Below, in pieces: positions 18,654 to 49,674 of a DNA stretch of 64,000 nt (within the stretch, counting starts at the first letter, position 1; each line of letters starts with the position of its first letter). The stretch is from Candidatus Desulfaltia sp. Its GTDB lineage: Bacteria > Acidobacteriota > Aminicenantia > Aminicenantales > UBA8522. Position numbers and translations under genes: made by a program. Below the pieces are notes generated by a model. The model made no database searches. It was not told where the DNA came from and worked only from the letters and a program-made list of their open reading frames with translations. The stretch spans positions 23,895 through 87,894 of the forward strand of contig DATKXS010000038.1 of the NCBI GenBank assembly GCA_035528895.1. Direction: 5' to 3'.

Positions 18654-19877
18654 TTACCTTGTCAACGACGCGGTCTTGAGGACGAACCCGCGCCTCTGCT
18701 CGAACTCGTAGACGGTGTCGAGCATCTTTTCCCGGACCGTCAGGAGCGAGCCGAACCCGTACTTCTCCCGCACCCGGTCGACGGCCGCACCCAGCCGCTC
18801 TTCCCGGTCCGAGTACGGCTCGAAGAGAGAAAGGGACCTGGCCCTGACCAGGTCCGAGGCCTTGACGCCGACGAGCCTCAAGGCCAGCCGCGACGAGGCG
18901 AAAAGATTCAGGAAAAGGTCCTCGGCGACCCGGTAGATCCCGCCCATCTCCTGGAGGGGTGTCAGCAGGAGGCGGCGCCGCACCTCGGTCTTGAAGTCGG
19001 AGTAGCGGGCCTTGACCTCGATGACGTGGGCGAAGAGGTGCTCCTGCCGCAGGCCGAGGGTCAGCCGGTCGCAGAGATAGGCGAGATGAGCGAGGAGCAG
19101 CCGCCTGTCCCAGAGGTCCTCGAGGAAGGTCGTCTCCCGCGAGACGGACTTGGGGACGGTGGGCGTAAACACGGGCCGGCTGTCGATCCCGCGCGACTGA
19201 AGATAGACCTCCTCGCCCTCGAGACCGAAGAGGGAGCGCAGCGCCGGCCGCGGCATCCCCCAGAGGTCGCCGATCTTGTGGATGTTGAGCATCCGGAGGA
19301 CGACCTGGGCCTTGGGCCCGATCCCGGGCAGGCTCTCGATGCCGAGGCCGCGGAGGAACTCCTCCTCGCAACCCTCCTCAACCTCGAAGAACCCGGCGGG
19401 CTTGGCCTTTTTGGTGGCCAGTTTGGCCAGGATCTTGTTGGGCGCCATACCAACCGAGACCTTGAGTCCGGTCGCTTTCTCAATGCGCGCCTTCATCTGC
19501 CGGGCGACGGCGGAGAAGGACGAATAGAGCGGCCGGCAGCGGGTGAAATCGAGGTAGGCCTCGTCGAGCGAGGCCTCCTCGACGTCGGGCGTGTACTCAT
19601 GGAGGATGCGGAAGAACTTCTCGGAGAAGGCCTGGTAAACCTGGTAGTTACCGCGGATGAAGAGGCCGTTCGGGCAGAGCTGGTAGGCCTTGCGCAGGGG
19701 CATGCCGGAGTGGACGCCGTAGCGGCGGGCCTCGTAGTTGCAGGTCGAGGCCACGCCCCGCTCGTGGGGCAGACCGCCGACGATGACCGGCTTCCCTTTC
19801 AGGGCGGGGTCGAGCAGCTCCTCGACGGCCGCGAAAAAGGCGTCGATGTCGATGTGGACGATCGAGCGGCGCTTCAT
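18654..19877 (-). CDS. dinB: Y-family DNA polymerase (DinB/Pol IV-like; occupies the ImuB position of the cassette)
   Basis: MKRRSIVHIDIDAFFAAVEE... and SLDEAYLDFT retain the catalytic Asp/Asp/Glu, followed by little-finger-like helix-hairpin-helix regions. The longer annotated N-terminal extension is not supported. Confidence 0.75.
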   Translation of the reverse strand: MKRRSIVHIDIDAFFAAVEELLDPALKGKPVIVGGLPHERGVASTCNYEARRYGVHSGMPLRKAYQLCPNGLFIRGNYQVYQAFSEKFFRILHEYTPDVEEASLDEAYLDFTRCRPLYSSFSAVARQMKARIEKATGLKVSVGMAPNKILAKLATKKAKPAGFFEVEEGCEEEFLRGLGIESLPGIGPKAQVVLRMLNIHKIGDLWGMPRPALRSLFGLEGEEVYLQSRGIDSRPVFTPTVPKSVSRETTFLEDLWDRRLLLAHLAYLCDRLTLGLRQEHLFAHVIEVKARYSDFKTEVRRRLLLTPLQEMGGIYRVAEDLFLNLFASSRLALRLVGVKASDLVRARSLSLFEPYSDREERLGAAVDRVREKYGFGSLLTVREKMLDTVYEFEQRRGFVLKTASLTR

Positions 19878-20071
19878 CCCGGCCTCGTTTTCATTTGAAT
19901 CGCTCTTCCGCCCTTCCCTTCTCCGTCCAGTTGTCATTGCGAGGAACCTTGTGACGAAGCAATCTCCAACTGAGATGGCTTCGCTAATGCTCGCCATGAC
20001 ATACTGTCGTACTGCATCCGCGATGACAAAAAGTCCTCCTGCAATCAGAGCCGCACATAGAGGGACCTCCC

Positions 20072-20689
20072 TCAGTACTTCCGCAGCAGGCCGACGACCC
20101 TGCCGACGACCCGAAGCTCCTTGACCTCGACTGGCGCGAACTCCGGGTTCTCGGGAACGAGGAGGATCCGGCCGTTCTCCTTGCGGAGCCTTTTCAACGT
20201 CACCGAGCCGTCGTCCAGGCGCGCCACGACCATCTCGCCGGACTGGGCCGTGTTCGTCCTCTCCAGGAGCACCCGGTCGCCGTCGTCGATGTAGGCGTCC
20301 ACCATGCTCTTCCCGGCGACGCGGACACAGAAGATGTTGCCGCGGCGGCGGCCGACCATCCACTCGGGCACGTCCACACTCTCGCCGAGAGAGTCGAAGA
20401 CCTCCTGGGCCCGGCCGGCGGGAGCGACGCCGACGAGGGGGACCTTGACCCGGTTCTCGAACGGCGAGGGGATCCCGGCGAGGCGCAACTCCCCGGCCTC
20501 ACGGCTGAGGTAGCCCTTCCTTTCCAGGCTCAGGACGTGCTTGAAGACGGCCGAGGGATTGGCCAGGCCCAGCTGTCTTCCGAGCTCGCGGATGGTCGGG
20601 GGAAAGCCGTGCTCGAGGACAAAGGCCTCGATGACCTGGAGGGCCTTTCTCTGGCGCTGGGTCAGCTCTTTGTACAATCTGTTCACCAT
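20072..20689 (-). CDS. lexA: LexA repressor
   Basis: N-terminal winged HTH (QRQRKALQVIEAFVLEHGFPPTIRELGRQLGL), a VAPAG cleavage-site region, and S24 peptidase Ser (GKSM) and Lys (TLKRL). ATG start with an AAGGTG RBS. The annotated upstream TTG start would overlap the -35 element. Confidence 0.85.
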   Translation of the reverse strand: MVNRLYKELTQRQRKALQVIEAFVLEHGFPPTIRELGRQLGLANPSAVFKHVLSLERKGYLSREAGELRLAGIPSPFENRVKVPLVGVAPAGRAQEVFDSLGESVDVPEWMVGRRRGNIFCVRVAGKSMVDAYIDDGDRVLLERTNTAQSGEMVVARLDDGSVTLKRLRKENGRILLVPENPEFAPVEVKELRVVGRVVGLLRKY

Positions 20690-20705
20690 TTTGTTCACCT
20701 TATAT

Positions 20706-20734
20706 ACAATAGGCCGCCGGGAGGCCCTTGTCAA
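20706..20734 (-). promoter_or_regulatory. Putative lexA promoter (TTGACA-17 nt-TATTGT on the minus strand)
   Basis: The -35 is the reverse complement of 20729-20734 and the -10 the reverse complement of 20706-20711, with a 17-nt spacer. A degenerate SOS-box-like element (TTGTTC-N7-ATACAA, 20691-20709) overlaps the -10 and start region. Confidence 0.35.
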
Positions 20735-21673: not shown

Positions 21674-22470
21674 GTGATTGACGCGCAGATTAAAGATAAG
21701 ACGGCCTTGATTACCGGGGCGAACACCGGGATCGGGAAGGCAACCGCCCTGGCCTTTGCCGCGAAAGGGACGAATGTCGTCATCCATTATCTCGGCCGAA
21801 AGGCTGAGATCAAAGAGCCCTTCCAGCCGGAATACGCTTGTGAGGGAAAGAGGGCGCCATGGAATTGGCCGGTCAAATCAAGAACAAAGGCGGCCAGGCG
21901 ATTATTACTGAAGCCAATTTGATGGTGCCCGAGGCCATTCCCGGGCTGTTCGATGAGGCGGACAAGGCTTTCGGCCGAGTCGATATCCCGGTCAATAATG
22001 CGGCCCACTGCGAACTGCCCGACGATATCTTCTCAGTGACGGCATCGAACATCGAGCGTCATTTTGCGGTCAACACGAGAGCGGCTGTGCTCTTGATTTC
22101 GGAATTCGTCAAGAGACACAAGTTGAGGGGCGGAGATTGGGGGCGAATAATCAATCTCAGTACAGACGCCGCTCAAGCCTTTGCCACTCAAATATCCTAT
22201 GGAGCCAGCAAGGCCGCCATCGAAGCCTATACAAGAAGCATTGCCTGGGAGGTCGGCCATCTCGGGATCACAGTCAATACAGTCGCGCCGGGGCCCGTTC
22301 AAACCGGATGGATGAGCGCCGAACTGGTGGATAAGGTCTTGCCGGACATTCCCCTCGGACGAGTCGGGACGCCGGAAGACATCGCCGACGTCATCGTCTT
22401 CCTCGCCTCAGACCAGGCCCGCTGGCTGACGGGCCAGGTCATCAAGGTCTCCGGCGGACCCAATCTCTAG
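21674..22470 (+). pseudogene. SDR-family oxidoreductase interrupted by a frameshift (or sequencing indel)
   Basis: The N-terminal fragment (TALITGANTGIGKATALAFAAKG...VVIHY, frame of 21674) and the C-terminal fragment (GGQAIITEANL...NNAA...YGASKAA...SGGPNL, frame of 21859) together form one classical SDR. The frame switch is near 21836-21848. Confidence 0.6.
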
Positions 22471-22526: not shown

Positions 22527-23960
22527 CTAGCGGTCGAGGGTGACCTCTTCGCGGTAGTCGATTGATATCTTGGGCCCTTTCTTCGATTTGAGCAGCTGAA
22601 TCGCCTTAAGATATAGCTCGTTCTTCTTCTGCCAGACCCGGTTCAGGTGCCTGGCATATCCGGCGATTCCTACGTCCAGCCATTTCCCTTTTATTAGTTT
22701 TCTCACCATTTGTTTGAGCGAGTAAAACTTCTTATGGCTGAAGATCTGGGCCCGTTGCAGGTCGAAAAGGGACAAGCGGGCGGGCTGGAAGACGACATGA
22801 TGGGCATCGTACAGAGCCCAATCCCGGAACTGAATCCGATTCTCGTGACTCACCTTGTCAAAAAATTCCGATCCGGGAAGCGGCGTCAGGATAAGGAATT
22901 GAGTGGAATTCAGCTTCGACCGCTTGGCGAACTTGACCGTCTGCTTGACGGTCTTCCAGTCGTCCTCGTCAAACCCATAAACGAACATCCCATGAATGCC
23001 GATCCGATGCTTCCGGAGGACTTTTATGGCGTCCGCTATTTCTTCGACGGTCTGCTTTTTCTTCATGGATCTTAGGCTCTCCGGGTTTACTGATTCAAAT
23101 CCGATGTAGAGCGTATGGCAGCCGGCCTTCTTCATCAGCCTGACCAGATCCAGGTCTTTGGCTACATCGGCGCGCACCTGGGTCGTCCACTTGAACTTGA
23201 ACCCCTCGCGGATCATCGCTTCCAACAATTCCTTGGCCCGTTTGCGGTCGGCGGTGAAATTATCATCATAGAAAAAAATGCGGTTTTTGCGCTCGTTATA
23301 GCGCCGCAGCTCTTCCATGATATTTTCGGTCGAGCGGAACCGGTATTTCTTGCCGAACATGCTCGTCACGGAGCAGAAGGAACAGTCAAACGGACAGCCC
23401 CTGCTTGTCTGGACGGGGATGCTGCTCAACCTGGATATCCCCTTTCTCGTCGATTTGAGCAAGGAGAGATCCGGGAACGGGATTTGATCGAGGTCCTTCA
23501 CGAACGGCCGCAGGACGTTGTGAATTTTCCGGCCGTTTTCTCTATAGGACAGACTGGGAATCCCGGTGAAACTCTCGCCTTTTTCCCAAGCGTCGATAAA
23601 AGCCATCAGGGTCTGTTCCCCTTCCCCGCGGACGATGAAGTCCGCGTGCTCCAGTGCTTCATCGGCCAGGAAGGTCACATGCGGCCCCCCCATCAGGACC
23701 GGGATCCCCCGCTTCCTGACCCTGTCCGCTATGGCATAGGCCCTGGGTGCAGTCGAGGTGATGGTCGAGATTCCTACCAGGTCAGCGGATTCGACAACCG
23801 CAAAGTCGATTTCCCGCAGTTCCTCTACGAAAATTTCCACCTCCCAGCCCCGCTCCTTCATCATCGTGCCCAGGATGATCGGGCCCAGCCGGGGCAGGGG
23901 GAAGCGCGAAAAAATGTGCAGGTTGGGAGCCTTGGGTTCGATGAAAACAATCTTGCTCAT
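22527..23960 (-). CDS. B12-binding domain radical SAM protein (class B)
   Basis: N-terminal cobalamin-binding Rossmann-like domain (GISTITSTAP...VLMGGPHVT...VRGEGE) and the radical SAM cluster motif CPFDCSFC. 4-nt overlap (ATGA) with the upstream MerR-like gene. Confidence 0.8.
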   Translation of the reverse strand: MSKIVFIEPKAPNLHIFSRFPLPRLGPIILGTMMKERGWEVEIFVEELREIDFAVVESADLVGISTITSTAPRAYAIADRVRKRGIPVLMGGPHVTFLADEALEHADFIVRGEGEQTLMAFIDAWEKGESFTGIPSLSYRENGRKIHNVLRPFVKDLDQIPFPDLSLLKSTRKGISRLSSIPVQTSRGCPFDCSFCSVTSMFGKKYRFRSTENIMEELRRYNERKNRIFFYDDNFTADRKRAKELLEAMIREGFKFKWTTQVRADVAKDLDLVRLMKKAGCHTLYIGFESVNPESLRSMKKKQTVEEIADAIKVLRKHRIGIHGMFVYGFDEDDWKTVKQTVKFAKRSKLNSTQFLILTPLPGSEFFDKVSHENRIQFRDWALYDAHHVVFQPARLSLFDLQRAQIFSHKKFYSLKQMVRKLIKGKWLDVGIAGYARHLNRVWQKKNELYLKAIQLLKSKKGPKISIDYREEVTLDR

Positions 23961-24679
23961 TTCACCCTCTCTTGCTTTTTCTTGCCGTCCCTCTTCAGGT
24001 TCTTGGCTTTCAGGCTCAAAATTTCCTTCCTTTTCTTCTTGAGCAGGTCTTCCCAGCGCTTGATACCCTTATCGAGAATTTCCATCTTGTCCAGGACGAC
24101 CTTGATCTCCATGAGCATGGCCTCCAGCTTGGTCGAAACCTCGGCCTTGGGGAAGCCCCCCAGATTTTCCTGGATAGCCAAGAAATATCGAAAATAATCG
24201 GATATCTCCTTAATTTCCTCGAGGGTGTAGCCGAAGAGCTGAAGGTCACGGATGAGTTCGCAAAGATAGATATAGCCTCCCGAATAGAGCCGAAACCCGC
24301 CCTCGCTGCGCATATCGGGCTCGATGATACCCTTGTCCTCCCAGTGTTTGATCGTCCGCGGGCTCAGCCCGACGCGTTCGGCCAGGTTCCCGATGGTCAG
24401 GTACTGGTCCGGATCCTCGGGTTTTCGCTTTCTTTCGGCGGTCTTCGGCAGCCCCACTTTTTTGAGAATTTTCTGAATATCCTCTGTTTCGTAACCGAGA
24501 TCGGTGAGCTTTTGAATATATCCGATCCTCTCCATCACCTCTTCCGAATAGAGAGGGACCCGGTCCTCGGTGAAACCGACCGGCTTCAGCAGTTTGGTCC
24601 TCTCCCATTCCCGGAGAGACGCCTCCTCGAGCTTAAACCTGGCGATAAACTCATCGCGGGTGAAGATGTGATTGTTCAA
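23957..24679 (-). CDS. MerR-family transcriptional regulator with tandem MerR-like HTH halves
   Basis: A clear MerR HTH (YLTIGNLAERVGLSPRTIKHWEDKGII...FRLY) in the second half, and a weaker MerR-like segment in the first half (FTRDEFIARFKLEEASLREWERTKLLKP...RVPLY). TTG start. Confidence 0.65.
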   Translation of the reverse strand: MNNHIFTRDEFIARFKLEEASLREWERTKLLKPVGFTEDRVPLYSEEVMERIGYIQKLTDLGYETEDIQKILKKVGLPKTAERKRKPEDPDQYLTIGNLAERVGLSPRTIKHWEDKGIIEPDMRSEGGFRLYSGGYIYLCELIRDLQLFGYTLEEIKEISDYFRYFLAIQENLGGFPKAEVSTKLEAMLMEIKVVLDKMEILDKGIKRWEDLLKKKRKEILSLKAKNLKRDGKKKQERVK

Positions 24680-24842
24680 ATAATACCTGCACGTATAATT
24701 ATATTACGCATCATTACAACCTATACGTATATGATTAATTGAATATTGTGCCCTTGTCAAGCTCTTTTTTCTATGCGGATTGGTGGTGAGACCTTTGTCC
24801 TGGCCCCTTGCCAAAAGAGATCGCGCATGCGATAAATAAACC

Positions 24843-25568
24843 ATGGCCAAAGAAAAGCAGCCCAACTCCGAACGACTAAAAAAAAGGCTCGACCTCGAGA
24901 CGCCCCTCATCGGCTTCTACGATGCCCCGGACCCGGCGATCTTCGAGCCGCTCGTCTCCCCCGAGGAACGCCAATGCGTCTATGCCTTTTATCAGTGCTG
25001 GCTCCGGGGCGAGACGCTCCATCTCACCAAGGATCGATACGGCTGCGGCGGCGCCGGTCATTGGATGTGGGGAGTGCAACTTCGGTCGAGAAAGGAATTC
25101 CTTGAATTCCTGGCCAACGATGAAGGGCTAAAGGTCTCGCGCTCGCTCATGGGAAAATGGATAGACGCCGCAAAACCCTACCGGGCCGAACACGCTCATC
25201 TCTTTCTCGGACCACTCAAGGAAGACGCCTGGCCCTATGCCAAATCCATCACCTTCCTGGTGAACCCGGACCAATTGAGCGCCCTGGCCATCGGCGCCCA
25301 GTACCGCAGCGCCCCCGAAGATCCTGCCCCGGTGATCGCCCCGTTCGGGTCGGGGTGTTCCCAAATCCTGCCGTTTGTAGATTTGAACATCGCCCAGGCA
25401 TCGATCGGGGCCACTGACATCGCCATGCGGCAACACCTTCCCCCGGACATGCTGAGCTTCACGGTCACGCGACTGATGTTCAAACAGCTCTGCGAGCTGG
25501 ACGAGAGGAGTTTTCTCTACAAGCCTTTCCTGGAGCGGCTGAAGCAATCCCGAGGCGGGAAGCTTTAA
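24843..25568 (+). CDS. DUF169 (COG2043) family protein
   Basis: About 240 aa with a Cys/Gly-rich core (CVYAFYQCW...YGCGGAGHWMWG) reminiscent of DUF169. No catalytic assignment possible. Confidence 0.4.
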   Translation: MAKEKQPNSERLKKRLDLETPLIGFYDAPDPAIFEPLVSPEERQCVYAFYQCWLRGETLHLTKDRYGCGGAGHWMWGVQLRSRKEFLEFLANDEGLKVSRSLMGKWIDAAKPYRAEHAHLFLGPLKEDAWPYAKSITFLVNPDQLSALAIGAQYRSAPEDPAPVIAPFGSGCSQILPFVDLNIAQASIGATDIAMRQHLPPDMLSFTVTRLMFKQLCELDERSFLYKPFLERLKQSRGGKL

Positions 25569-48261: not shown

Positions 48262-49674
48262 TCACAGCCGGACTTTCTCTGGTGGAGCCTTCCATTTCAG
48301 GAGGTAGGACGGATCGATCGTGATGTTGAGCCAACGTTCCAGCGTCTGGATCACCAGGTCTTTCTGATCCAGGTCCCGGATCTTCAGGCTGTGATTGGCC
48401 CCGGGCTGGACGACCTTCAGGACATCCAGGCTGGTCGCGGGCTCGACGGCAGCGGCCGTCCAGGGGTCGATCCCACCGTATATGTAGATGATGCGCTGGC
48501 CCTGGGTTTGCAGCCAGGGGATGACGTCCTGCATCACCTCGGGCCGGAAGACCAGGGTCACTCCCCGGGGAGCGAAAGCGCGATAGTCGGGTTAGGGGAC
48601 AGCCTGCAGAAGGCCATTCAGGTGATCATATACGTATGGACAGTAACCGATCTCGGTGAAGGCCTGGTAAAAAAGCGGCTGAAAATAAAGGAAGCCTTGA
48701 TCTGCATAATAGGAAGGTGAGGATACCGCCACCAGATGATCCAGAGCTCGCTGGTCGCCCGCATCCGCTCCGGGGATAGCGGCACAGTCCGTCTCCCGGC
48801 CATATTGCCAGAAGGCGAACGGATATTCCAGGGCGCAATATTCGAAGGCCTCCTCCTCGGGGATGATGCCAAAGACATAGCCTTTGCTCTCAGCGTACTG
48901 CCTGAAAAGAGGCATCAAGCGGGAGCGGCGGGAGAGGACCAGGCGCTGGAAGTTCCAGAGCTTTTGGCGGCATCCGGCCGATCCTACCGTTGTGAAGAAA
49001 GGAGCGAACCGGGGGTCATCGGGAAAGGGCATGATCGGCGCGACGTAGGCAACGGTCGCTTCAACATCCTCGGGATGGAAGCGGCGGTAGAAGAGGGCGG
49101 TCATACCCCCTTTGCTACCTCCAGTGCTGACCCATTTCCCCGGATAGAGCTCTCTCAACGCTTCCCGGATTCGGTGCTGGTCGTCGGCCGCCTGGCGGAT
49201 GGTCAAATATTGCCAGGCGGGCGGGACCGCACCGGGAAAGAAGCGATGGACAAGCATTATCTGGTTGGCCTGGAGCAGGACGGATAGCTCCGGCTCAGAA
49301 TTGCGGTTGATCCCATACCCTGAGGTATAAAAGACCATCGGGGCGTCATCGGCCCGGAGAGAGAGATAGAAGCGCTGGCTGAAAGTTCCCGCGGACGGGT
49401 CGACATGGTCCACCGGTTGAGTGATATCGACCTGGAAGGAGCTGGTGAAACCCGAAAGCGTGGGGATCTGAACAGCCTGAACTCCGGGCAGCGCCTGCAG
49501 TTTCTGAAGAAGGGTCTGGGAAGTAGGAGTGGGCGCCGGTGTTTCATCGGTTTTGCGGGAGCAGGAAGCGATAATAAGGCTGACGAGGGCAAGTCCGGCC
49601 AGGGCTCGGCGGAAAAGGTGACGTCGCCGATTGAGGCTTCTTTCTTTCATCGGCCTGCCGCTTGCTTCATTCAT
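48262..49674 (-). pseudogene. S37-like (tripeptidyl-aminopeptidase-type alpha/beta hydrolase) secreted peptidase interrupted by a frameshift
   Basis: The 360-aa N-terminal ORF has a signal peptide and a GGSKGGM nucleophile-elbow-like motif. The 99-aa C-terminal ORF (IYIYGGIDPWTA...PGANH) is in another frame. Junction near 48561-48594. Confidence 0.5.

Follow-up and report, generated by a model that had tools for sequence, protein, structure and literature searches.

A conserved gene pair of a tandem-MerR regulator and an orphan radical-SAM enzyme behind a two-box promoter that may be autorepressed

Results

We analysed a 64,000-nucleotide stretch of DNA (contig DATKXS010000038.1 of assembly GCA_035528895.1, positions 23,895 to 87,894; hereafter the window), in which the gene for a MerR-like regulator is followed on the minus strand by the gene for a B12-type radical S-adenosylmethionine (radical-SAM) enzyme. 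The regulator gene (23957..24679, TTG start) encodes 240 residues and was delimited from the list of open reading frames (ORFs), from two Pfam MerR_1 matches and from an identical protein in public data (P0001). The radical-SAM gene (22527..23960, 477 residues) was assigned from Pfam matches to PF02310 and PF04055, fold matches and its conserved position. The two genes meet in the tetranucleotide ATGA (23957..23960, minus strand), in which the TGA of the regulator gene and the ATG of the enzyme gene are shared; the plus strand reads tcat at these positions, which bears out the 4-nt overlap described in the initial annotation of this region, drawn up from the sequence alone. A DUF169 gene (24843-25568, plus strand, assigned by Pfam) is divergent from the operon and separated from the regulator gene by an intergenic region of 163 bp with 39% GC.

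The MerR family profiles (Pfam PF13411 and PF00376; MerR_1 cut-off 21.6 bits) recognise the regulator twice. The whole protein matches MerR_1 in two stretches with 86.5 bits, and each half is also recognised alone, residues 1-92 with 39.8 bits (E 4.9e-10, spanning positions 4-67 of the 69 in the profile) and residues 93-240 with 50.8 bits. The two halves align with each other in BLASTP (26% identity, E 7e-5), and an AlphaFold2 model built on a 76-sequence alignment, with a predicted local distance difference test score (pLDDT) of 82.5, contains two winged-helix folds, both complete, one formed by residues 5-75 and the other by residues 94-171. The duplication of the MerR domain suspected in the initial annotation is thus supported both by domain parsing, in which the N-terminal half is itself a MerR domain rather than an unrelated region, and by structure prediction. 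The initial annotation is also right to regard one MerR domain as usual, with the qualification that duplication, unusual as it is, is already known from the fused homodimer type of HspR in NCBIfam (NF047377). Searches of solved structures by sequence and fold placed CueR first (E 3.6e-9) and returned single-domain MerR proteins only. The regulator FtsR/Rv1828 was considered as a tandem-MerR precedent and rejected, as FtsR has one N-terminal MerR domain and a regulatory domain; the Pfam flag Rv1828_C on homologues of the regulator was marked faint.

Along the chain, all of it encoded on the minus strand, the degenerate N-terminal domain (residues 5-75, 24455..24667; Pfam and AlphaFold2) is followed by a flexible linker with pLDDT below 50 (residues 78-90, 24410..24448), by the canonical C-terminal domain (residues 94-171, 24167..24400; Pfam MerR_1 and MerR) and by a single 60-residue helix with a Lys/Arg-rich end (residues 178-237, 23969..24148; pLDDT 90-97 in the AlphaFold2 model). 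A KKVGLP motif precedes the linker; K74, G76 and P78 are invariant in a 15-sequence alignment, and in the 76-sequence alignment G76 and P78 are still invariant and K74 nearly so. The model leads us to presume that the 60-residue helix acts as a coiled-coil dimerisation helix, the counterpart of the antiparallel coiled coil of MerR dimers; residues 205-240 carry a mean net charge of +7.2 across the family. Past this helix we found no domain matches, and the regulator shows no effector- or metal-binding region or Cys/His cluster; its sole cysteine is C140, in the C-terminal DNA-binding domain. This residue (around 24260-24262) lies in a helix and is invariant in 76 aligned homologues; it may stand about five residues away from the sensing cysteine of NmlR/AdhR-type proteins, and we make no claim that it senses redox state or electrophiles.

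The two MerR copies are unequal. All 79 relatives keep S106, K111, H112, W113, R124, E126, G127, G128, F129 and R130 of the C domain unchanged, and R108 (78 of 79), T109 (76 of 79) and Y132 (78 of 79) are nearly invariant; the invariant residues occupy recognition helix and wing positions. The N-domain equivalents of these DNA-reading residues are variable and non-basic, R108, K111, H112, R124 and R130 being represented there by E/D/A, A/R/E, E, F/Y and P, respectively, and only the core residues W25, G35, P42, L58, G62 and Y63 are kept. Since the equivalent positions hold other residues and the core alone is retained, the N copy has kept the fold and lost the canonical DNA-reading set.

The gene pair is conserved. 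A scan with one genome per species yielded at least 183 relatives, and 80 loci were kept. More than 100 homologues of the regulator were found in public data among the matches listed, with 61-88% identity and mostly labelled Aminicenantes. A radical-SAM homologue (60-93% identity) lies directly downstream in at least 77 of the 80 loci, which come from different species, so that the comparative genomics proposed in the initial annotation speaks for the pairing. The two genes overlap at their junction in 58 of the 75 measurable loci; the overlap measures 8 nt in 48 of these, 4 nt in 9 and 23 nt in one. Clustering of the ORFs of the 80 loci revealed no further widely conserved neighbour; the remaining synteny is clade-specific and comprises, in the clade of the window, the DUF169 gene together with genes for a short-chain dehydrogenase, a HAD hydrolase and histidine ammonia-lyase, and in another clade an ABC-2 transporter. 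Literature searches retrieved no description of the regulator/radical-SAM pair. P0001 is labelled Candidatus Desulfaltia sp. (Desulfobacterales) at NCBI, and its close relatives and the syntenic contigs are all labelled Aminicenantes, which suggests that the genome carrying it is mis-binned or mislabelled.

When the 79 distinct upstream regions were aligned on the start codon, their architecture proved to be fixed. In the window, a promoter scan identified a -35 hexamer TTGACA (24755..24760) and a -10 hexamer AATCAT (24731..24736), both on the minus strand and separated by 18 nt. TTGAC[AT] occupies the matching -35 position in 71 of the 79 related regions, and among these 71 promoters the spacer is 17 nt in 60 and the commonest -10 hexamer is TATATT. 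Two boxes follow. Box 1 (O1; 24720..24733, gene strand CATATACGTATAGG, matrix scores 21.5 and 17.6 for a match on both strands) has its central CG at 24726-24727 and sits at the predicted transcription start; the distance from the -10 hexamer downstream to the CG is 6 nt in 49 of the 71 relatives and 3 nt in the window. Box 2 (O2; 24686..24699, gene strand ATTATACGTGCAGG, likewise on both strands, matrix scores 16.5 and 11.5) has its central CG at 24692-24693, which precedes the start codon by 14 nt in almost every one of the 79 regions, and covers the Shine-Dalgarno AGG (24686-24688). The box centres are 34 bp apart in the window and 34 or 35 bp apart in 62 of 79 regions, and the stretch between them is AT-rich and free in sequence.

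Both boxes share the core T-R-W-A-C-G-Y-A-Y-A, with an invariant CG and strong conservation of T-4, T+2, A+3 and A+5, and the idealised box is the 14-bp palindrome CCTATAC|GTATAGG; the initial annotation was right to place TACGTA-core sites in the promoter. The boxes mirror each other, and in each the outer half-site (O1, CCTATAC; O2, GTATAGG) shows stronger conservation than the inner one. A matrix built on the boxes gave 309 matches in 80 upstream regions and 24 in the other approximately 615 kb. The perfect palindrome TATACGTATA pointed out in the initial annotation (24722-24731) is the core of box 1; as 18% of shuffles of the 163-bp intergenic region yield a perfect 10-bp palindrome, the palindrome in itself does not exceed chance, and it is the conservation of the box in 79 upstream regions that constitutes the evidence. 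The second dyad noted there, ACGTATAATTATATTACG (24691-24708), is present in its letters, with arms matching at 6 of 8 positions; it is not conserved as drawn, and its ACGTATA end alone falls within box 2. The dyad was mis-delimited: its remainder falls in the non-conserved, AT-rich stretch between the boxes and includes another perfect 10-bp palindrome, TATAATTATA (24694-24703), which is not conserved in relatives.

When the whole window was scanned with the matrix for further regulon members, only the operon's own promoter and weak intragenic matches at 48626 and 46823 were returned. In some loci (L042, L053, L060, L061, L070, L071 and L085) a weak box-like match (CATGAACGAGTAGGT and variants) recurs about 3.3 kb downstream of the regulator start, on the minus strand and inside an ABC-2 permease gene; it probably reflects conservation of the coding sequence rather than an operator. 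A conserved leader peptide was sought in the 5' region as well: 46 of the 79 regions contain no such ORF, and in the remainder the ORFs are heterogeneous.

The enzyme matches PF02310 (B12-binding; 61.8 bits, cut-off 32.1) and PF04055 (Radical_SAM; 105.8 bits, above its cut-off). Its B12-binding-type Rossmann domain comprises residues 23-121 (23598..23894, minus strand), and residues 189-196 (23373..23396, minus strand) read CPFDCSFC, a CX3CX2C motif for a [4Fe-4S] cluster whose C189, C193 and C196 are invariant across 41 homologues. The initial annotation was therefore correct in describing a B12-binding radical-SAM enzyme and in placing the B12-binding domain in the enzyme, as the regulator has no PF02310 match. 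In the structural model of the enzyme (pLDDT 74), in which the C-terminal 120 residues are poorly modelled, a B12-type Rossmann domain is joined to a radical-SAM barrel, so that motif, core and Rossmann domain agree with class B radical-SAM enzymes. The top Foldseek matches were MgmA/QCMT (9CCB), AprD4, TsrM, OxsB and CysS (E 7e-23 to 1e-18), and phmmer aligned the enzyme with 9CCB, a methyl-coenzyme M reductase glutamine C-methyltransferase, at E 2.4e-20. With the class B enzymes (MgmA/QCMT, TsrM, OxsB, CysS, TokK) and their look-alike AprD4 it shares the N-terminal Rossmann domain and the barrel with CX3CX2C, but its identity to them is just 16-21%.

Curated NCBIfam models all scored far under their cut-offs: BchE (TIGR02026) 178.4 against 481.35, HpnJ (TIGR03471) 168.2 against 577.6 and QCMT (TIGR04014) 110.1 against 360. 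Hence, on the basis of profile scores, we assign the enzyme to an orphan family of the B12-type radical-SAM class. Its most likely activity is the methylation of an unactivated carbon. AprD4 has a B12-type domain yet does not use cobalamin, and since it is among the top fold matches, the use of cobalamin by the enzyme should not be taken as assured.

The regulator and its boxes are also found with other genes. At L066 (3989-5966) the regulator and both boxes are kept and the gene that follows, overlapping the regulator end, encodes a DUF6051 protein, while at L032 (3977-5500) they are kept with a gene for an HlyIII/PAQR-type membrane protein. As these two loci keep regulator and boxes with a different cargo, they fit a portable cassette of regulator and operators that controls whatever gene lies downstream. 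One metagenome-assembled genome (CAZIDN01) carries two regulator/radical-SAM modules (L011 and L019), with 74%/78% and 59%/71% identity to the proteins of the window; their boxes are very similar, so the two copies may regulate each other.

A distant tandem-MerR subfamily (22-26% identity) was found in other metagenomes (L087, L088 and L094), and in it the N domain is better conserved than the C domain. It adjoins a convergent gene cluster for a radical-SAM protein, a B12-type radical-SAM protein and a DegT aminotransferase, fully annotated in L088 (4001-8505); a B12-type radical-SAM homologue lies near the regulator in 3 of the 5 loci with enough flank. The upstream regions of this subfamily do not share the TACGTA boxes.

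We also considered whether the pair might be a defence or toxin-antitoxin module. PADLOC yielded no full-length component; mad1 was matched over 41 residues of helix-turn-helix (44.7 bits), and PDC-M51A was matched through the generic radical-SAM domain (79.2 bits). This idea was rejected, as the matches are generic and the pair behaves as a conserved lineage gene and not as a patchy island.

As for the surroundings, the divergence of the DUF169 gene mentioned in the initial annotation is real in the window but is not part of the conserved unit, since the gene accompanies the pair in approximately 8 of the 80 loci, all of them close relatives; the DUF169 gene lies outside that unit. Upstream of it, at 24809-24842 on the plus strand, TTGCCA and GATAAA are separated by 17 nt, and 5 nt remain between GATAAA and the ATG; the close relatives L007 and L009 share the TTGCCA segment. 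Judging from the placement of these elements, the DUF169 transcript could be leaderless. On the other side of the operon, a short-chain dehydrogenase gene (21674-22470, plus strand) is convergent with the radical-SAM gene and looks frameshifted: residues 1 to about 40 of its orthologue at L003 align with frame 2, whereas residues 38-263 align with frame 1, and the switch falls near 21781-21790. It is either a pseudogene or the product of an assembly error. A few kb from the operon lies a LexA/DinB-type polymerase cassette (18654-20734, minus strand), which at L003 (9478-12717) also includes a PHP/DnaE-type polymerase. Because its synteny is clade-specific, this cassette is probably unrelated to the operon.

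Discussion

Taking these data together, we consider it moderately probable that the pair constitutes a self-contained, autorepressed two-gene operon, in which a tandem-MerR regulator acts at the two boxes of a strong promoter and is coupled to an orphan radical-SAM enzyme. According to this proposal, a strong sigma-70-type promoter would drive the regulator and, by translational coupling, the enzyme, and the regulator would bind two near-palindromic boxes built on TRTACGTAYA, O1 centred on the transcription start and O2 located 34-35 bp downstream, over the ribosome-binding site. The bound regulator would then block initiation or promoter escape, and hence act as a repressor, rather than as an activator of the MerR type, which twists a spacer of excessive length. 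We postulate repression because the promoter is close to consensus, its spacer is optimal, and the conserved sites are located at the transcription start and in the leader, a geometry that suits a repressor. The C domain and the long helix most likely form a MerR-style homodimer reading each box, given that both the DNA-reading residues of the C domain and the symmetric core of the boxes are invariant.

Several observations weigh against this proposal. The transcription start is placed from the -10 hexamer alone. Characterised MerR proteins use palindromes of 18-22 bp, and the symmetric core of the boxes is shorter, 10 bp and 14 bp at most. Moreover, the outer CC and GG are conserved on the outward side of each box only, a bias that could stem from an asymmetric reading of the box or from overlap with the promoter and Shine-Dalgarno signals. 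The spacing of 34-35 bp corresponds to approximately 3.3 helical turns, which does not put the two sites on exactly the same face of the DNA. Finally, the boxes are complementary to each other, which leaves room for a contribution of the RNA.

The alternative that withstands the data best, although we regard it as unlikely, concerns the way in which the regulator would contact its boxes and would still result in autorepression. A single chain might act as a pseudo-dimer, the C domain binding the strong outer half-site and the N domain the weaker inner one, so that two chains joined by their long helices would occupy O1 and O2 in mirror orientation. Such an arrangement would agree with the better conservation of the outer half-sites, with the mirror symmetry of the boxes and with the greater variability of both the N domain and the inner half-sites, and it would have a precedent in the fused homodimer type of HspR. 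However, the N domain contains no counterparts of R108, K111, H112, R124 and R130, and the asymmetry of the half-sites is explicable by the fact that O1 overlaps the promoter and O2 the Shine-Dalgarno sequence. Co-variation between protein and DNA, by which we sought to assign half-sites to domains, was discarded as a means to that end, since the top columns were linker and tail positions and represented phylogenetic noise. The resemblance to the fused HspR type is itself confined to the presence of two MerR-type domains in one chain: the regulator scores 39.8 bits with NF047377 (cut-off 300) in one matched stretch and is not a member, and its partner is a radical-SAM enzyme and not a chaperone operon. 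HspR proteins are MerR-family repressors and not activators, and the box sequence is, we presume, unrelated to the HspR inverted repeat.

Rather than reading DNA, the N domain more likely senses a signal, binds a partner or bridges the two bound dimers. For a MerR-like fold that binds protein instead of DNA, CbpM offers a precedent (PMC4063869), and the degenerate N domain might have a similar role. CbpM itself is a stand-alone protein. We further speculate, while holding it quite improbable, that the N domain might be a sensor to which the co-translated radical-SAM enzyme or its product binds, in which case the enzyme would serve as co-repressor or anti-repressor of its own operon. If true, this would amount to an enzyme-coupled feedback loop built from a recycled DNA-binding fold, comparable to HspR/DnaK and to the conditional cooperativity of antitoxin-toxin systems.

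We give slightly less credence again to regulation at the level of RNA, in which box 1 of the transcript would pair with box 2 and hide the Shine-Dalgarno sequence, as an RNA thermometer or another cis-acting leader. Box 1 is approximately the reverse complement of box 2, and in 30 sequences 82.5% of the cells of a 12-bp helix pair; column shuffles, however, reach 81.2%, and 30 of 500 of them are as high. The main variable pair contains 19 A.C mismatches against 10 G.U wobbles, numbers that agree with independent variation of the two positions. At some loci the hairpin exceeds shuffled sequence in stability (L034, -13.9 kcal/mol, z -2.6; L061, z -1.7), but the leader of the window folds no better than its shuffles (z +0.92) and leaves the AGG unpaired. 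Furthermore, each box is conserved as a sequence, beyond mere complementarity, the loop is nearly fixed in length and free in sequence, and neither an Rfam match nor a conserved leader peptide was found in this region.

The C domain being closest to CueR, ZntR and MerR would fit a classical MerR switch, in which the regulator occupies the spacer separating the -35 from the -10 hexamer and, upon binding its effector, activates by untwisting an over-long spacer; we nevertheless regard this as very improbable here. Characterised MerR regulators bind inside a spacer of 19-20 bp and activate by distorting the DNA, and a spacer of this length that holds the operator defines the family (PMC9909328). 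By contrast, 60 of 71 promoters in our set have the optimal 17-nt spacer, the boxes lie downstream of the -10 hexamer, and no effector-binding region or metal-binding Cys/His cluster follows the helix. The regulator thus resembles the canonical proteins (CueR, ZntR, MerR, MtaN and HiNmlR) in the C half, a winged helix followed by a long helix, and in its palindromic operators, and differs from them in its extra degenerate N-terminal MerR fold, in having no effector region and in operators placed at the transcription start and ribosome-binding site of a promoter with a 17-nt spacer.

The analogy with B12- or light-responsive MerR systems drawn in the initial annotation should be dropped: control in the style of CarH/LitR, with the enzyme supplying the cobalamin sensor in trans, is scarcely credible even though a MerR fold and a B12-type domain co-occur in one operon, tight translational coupling would permit complex formation and the repressor mode is shared, since the regulator reaches 19.7 bits with the NCBIfam CarH model (NF052513; cut-off 400) and has no B12-binding domain of the kind fused to the MerR domain in that family, the Rossmann domain belongs here to a separate protein with a complete radical-SAM enzyme fold, nothing links the system to light, and regulator and boxes persist without any B12 domain where the cargo is swapped. 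Aminicenantes-type lineages, moreover, are reported mainly from anoxic sediments, which we count against such control.

The system is not a new kind: its regulator is a variation on the MerR family that is coupled to an enzyme of an orphan radical-SAM family. The nearest curated relatives of the enzyme include the lipid-modifying HpnJ and HpnR, and this kinship, together with the HlyIII cargo swap, gives a hint, as a remote extension, that the cassette might control membrane remodelling under stress.

We herein describe a compact and sharply delimited cassette of promoter, two putative operators, tandem-MerR regulator and one enzyme, which is conserved in at least 183 species-level genomes of a largely uncultured lineage and yields predictions at the level of sequence. 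A well conserved orphan radical-SAM family (70% or more identity among the relatives listed) that comes with a dedicated regulator is a good candidate for substrate discovery. Its regulator would be a MerR-family protein whose mode of action is probably plain repression, exerted at the transcription start and within the 5' leader, and a MerR fold that was duplicated and then stripped of its DNA-reading residues would represent a route to new sensor domains.

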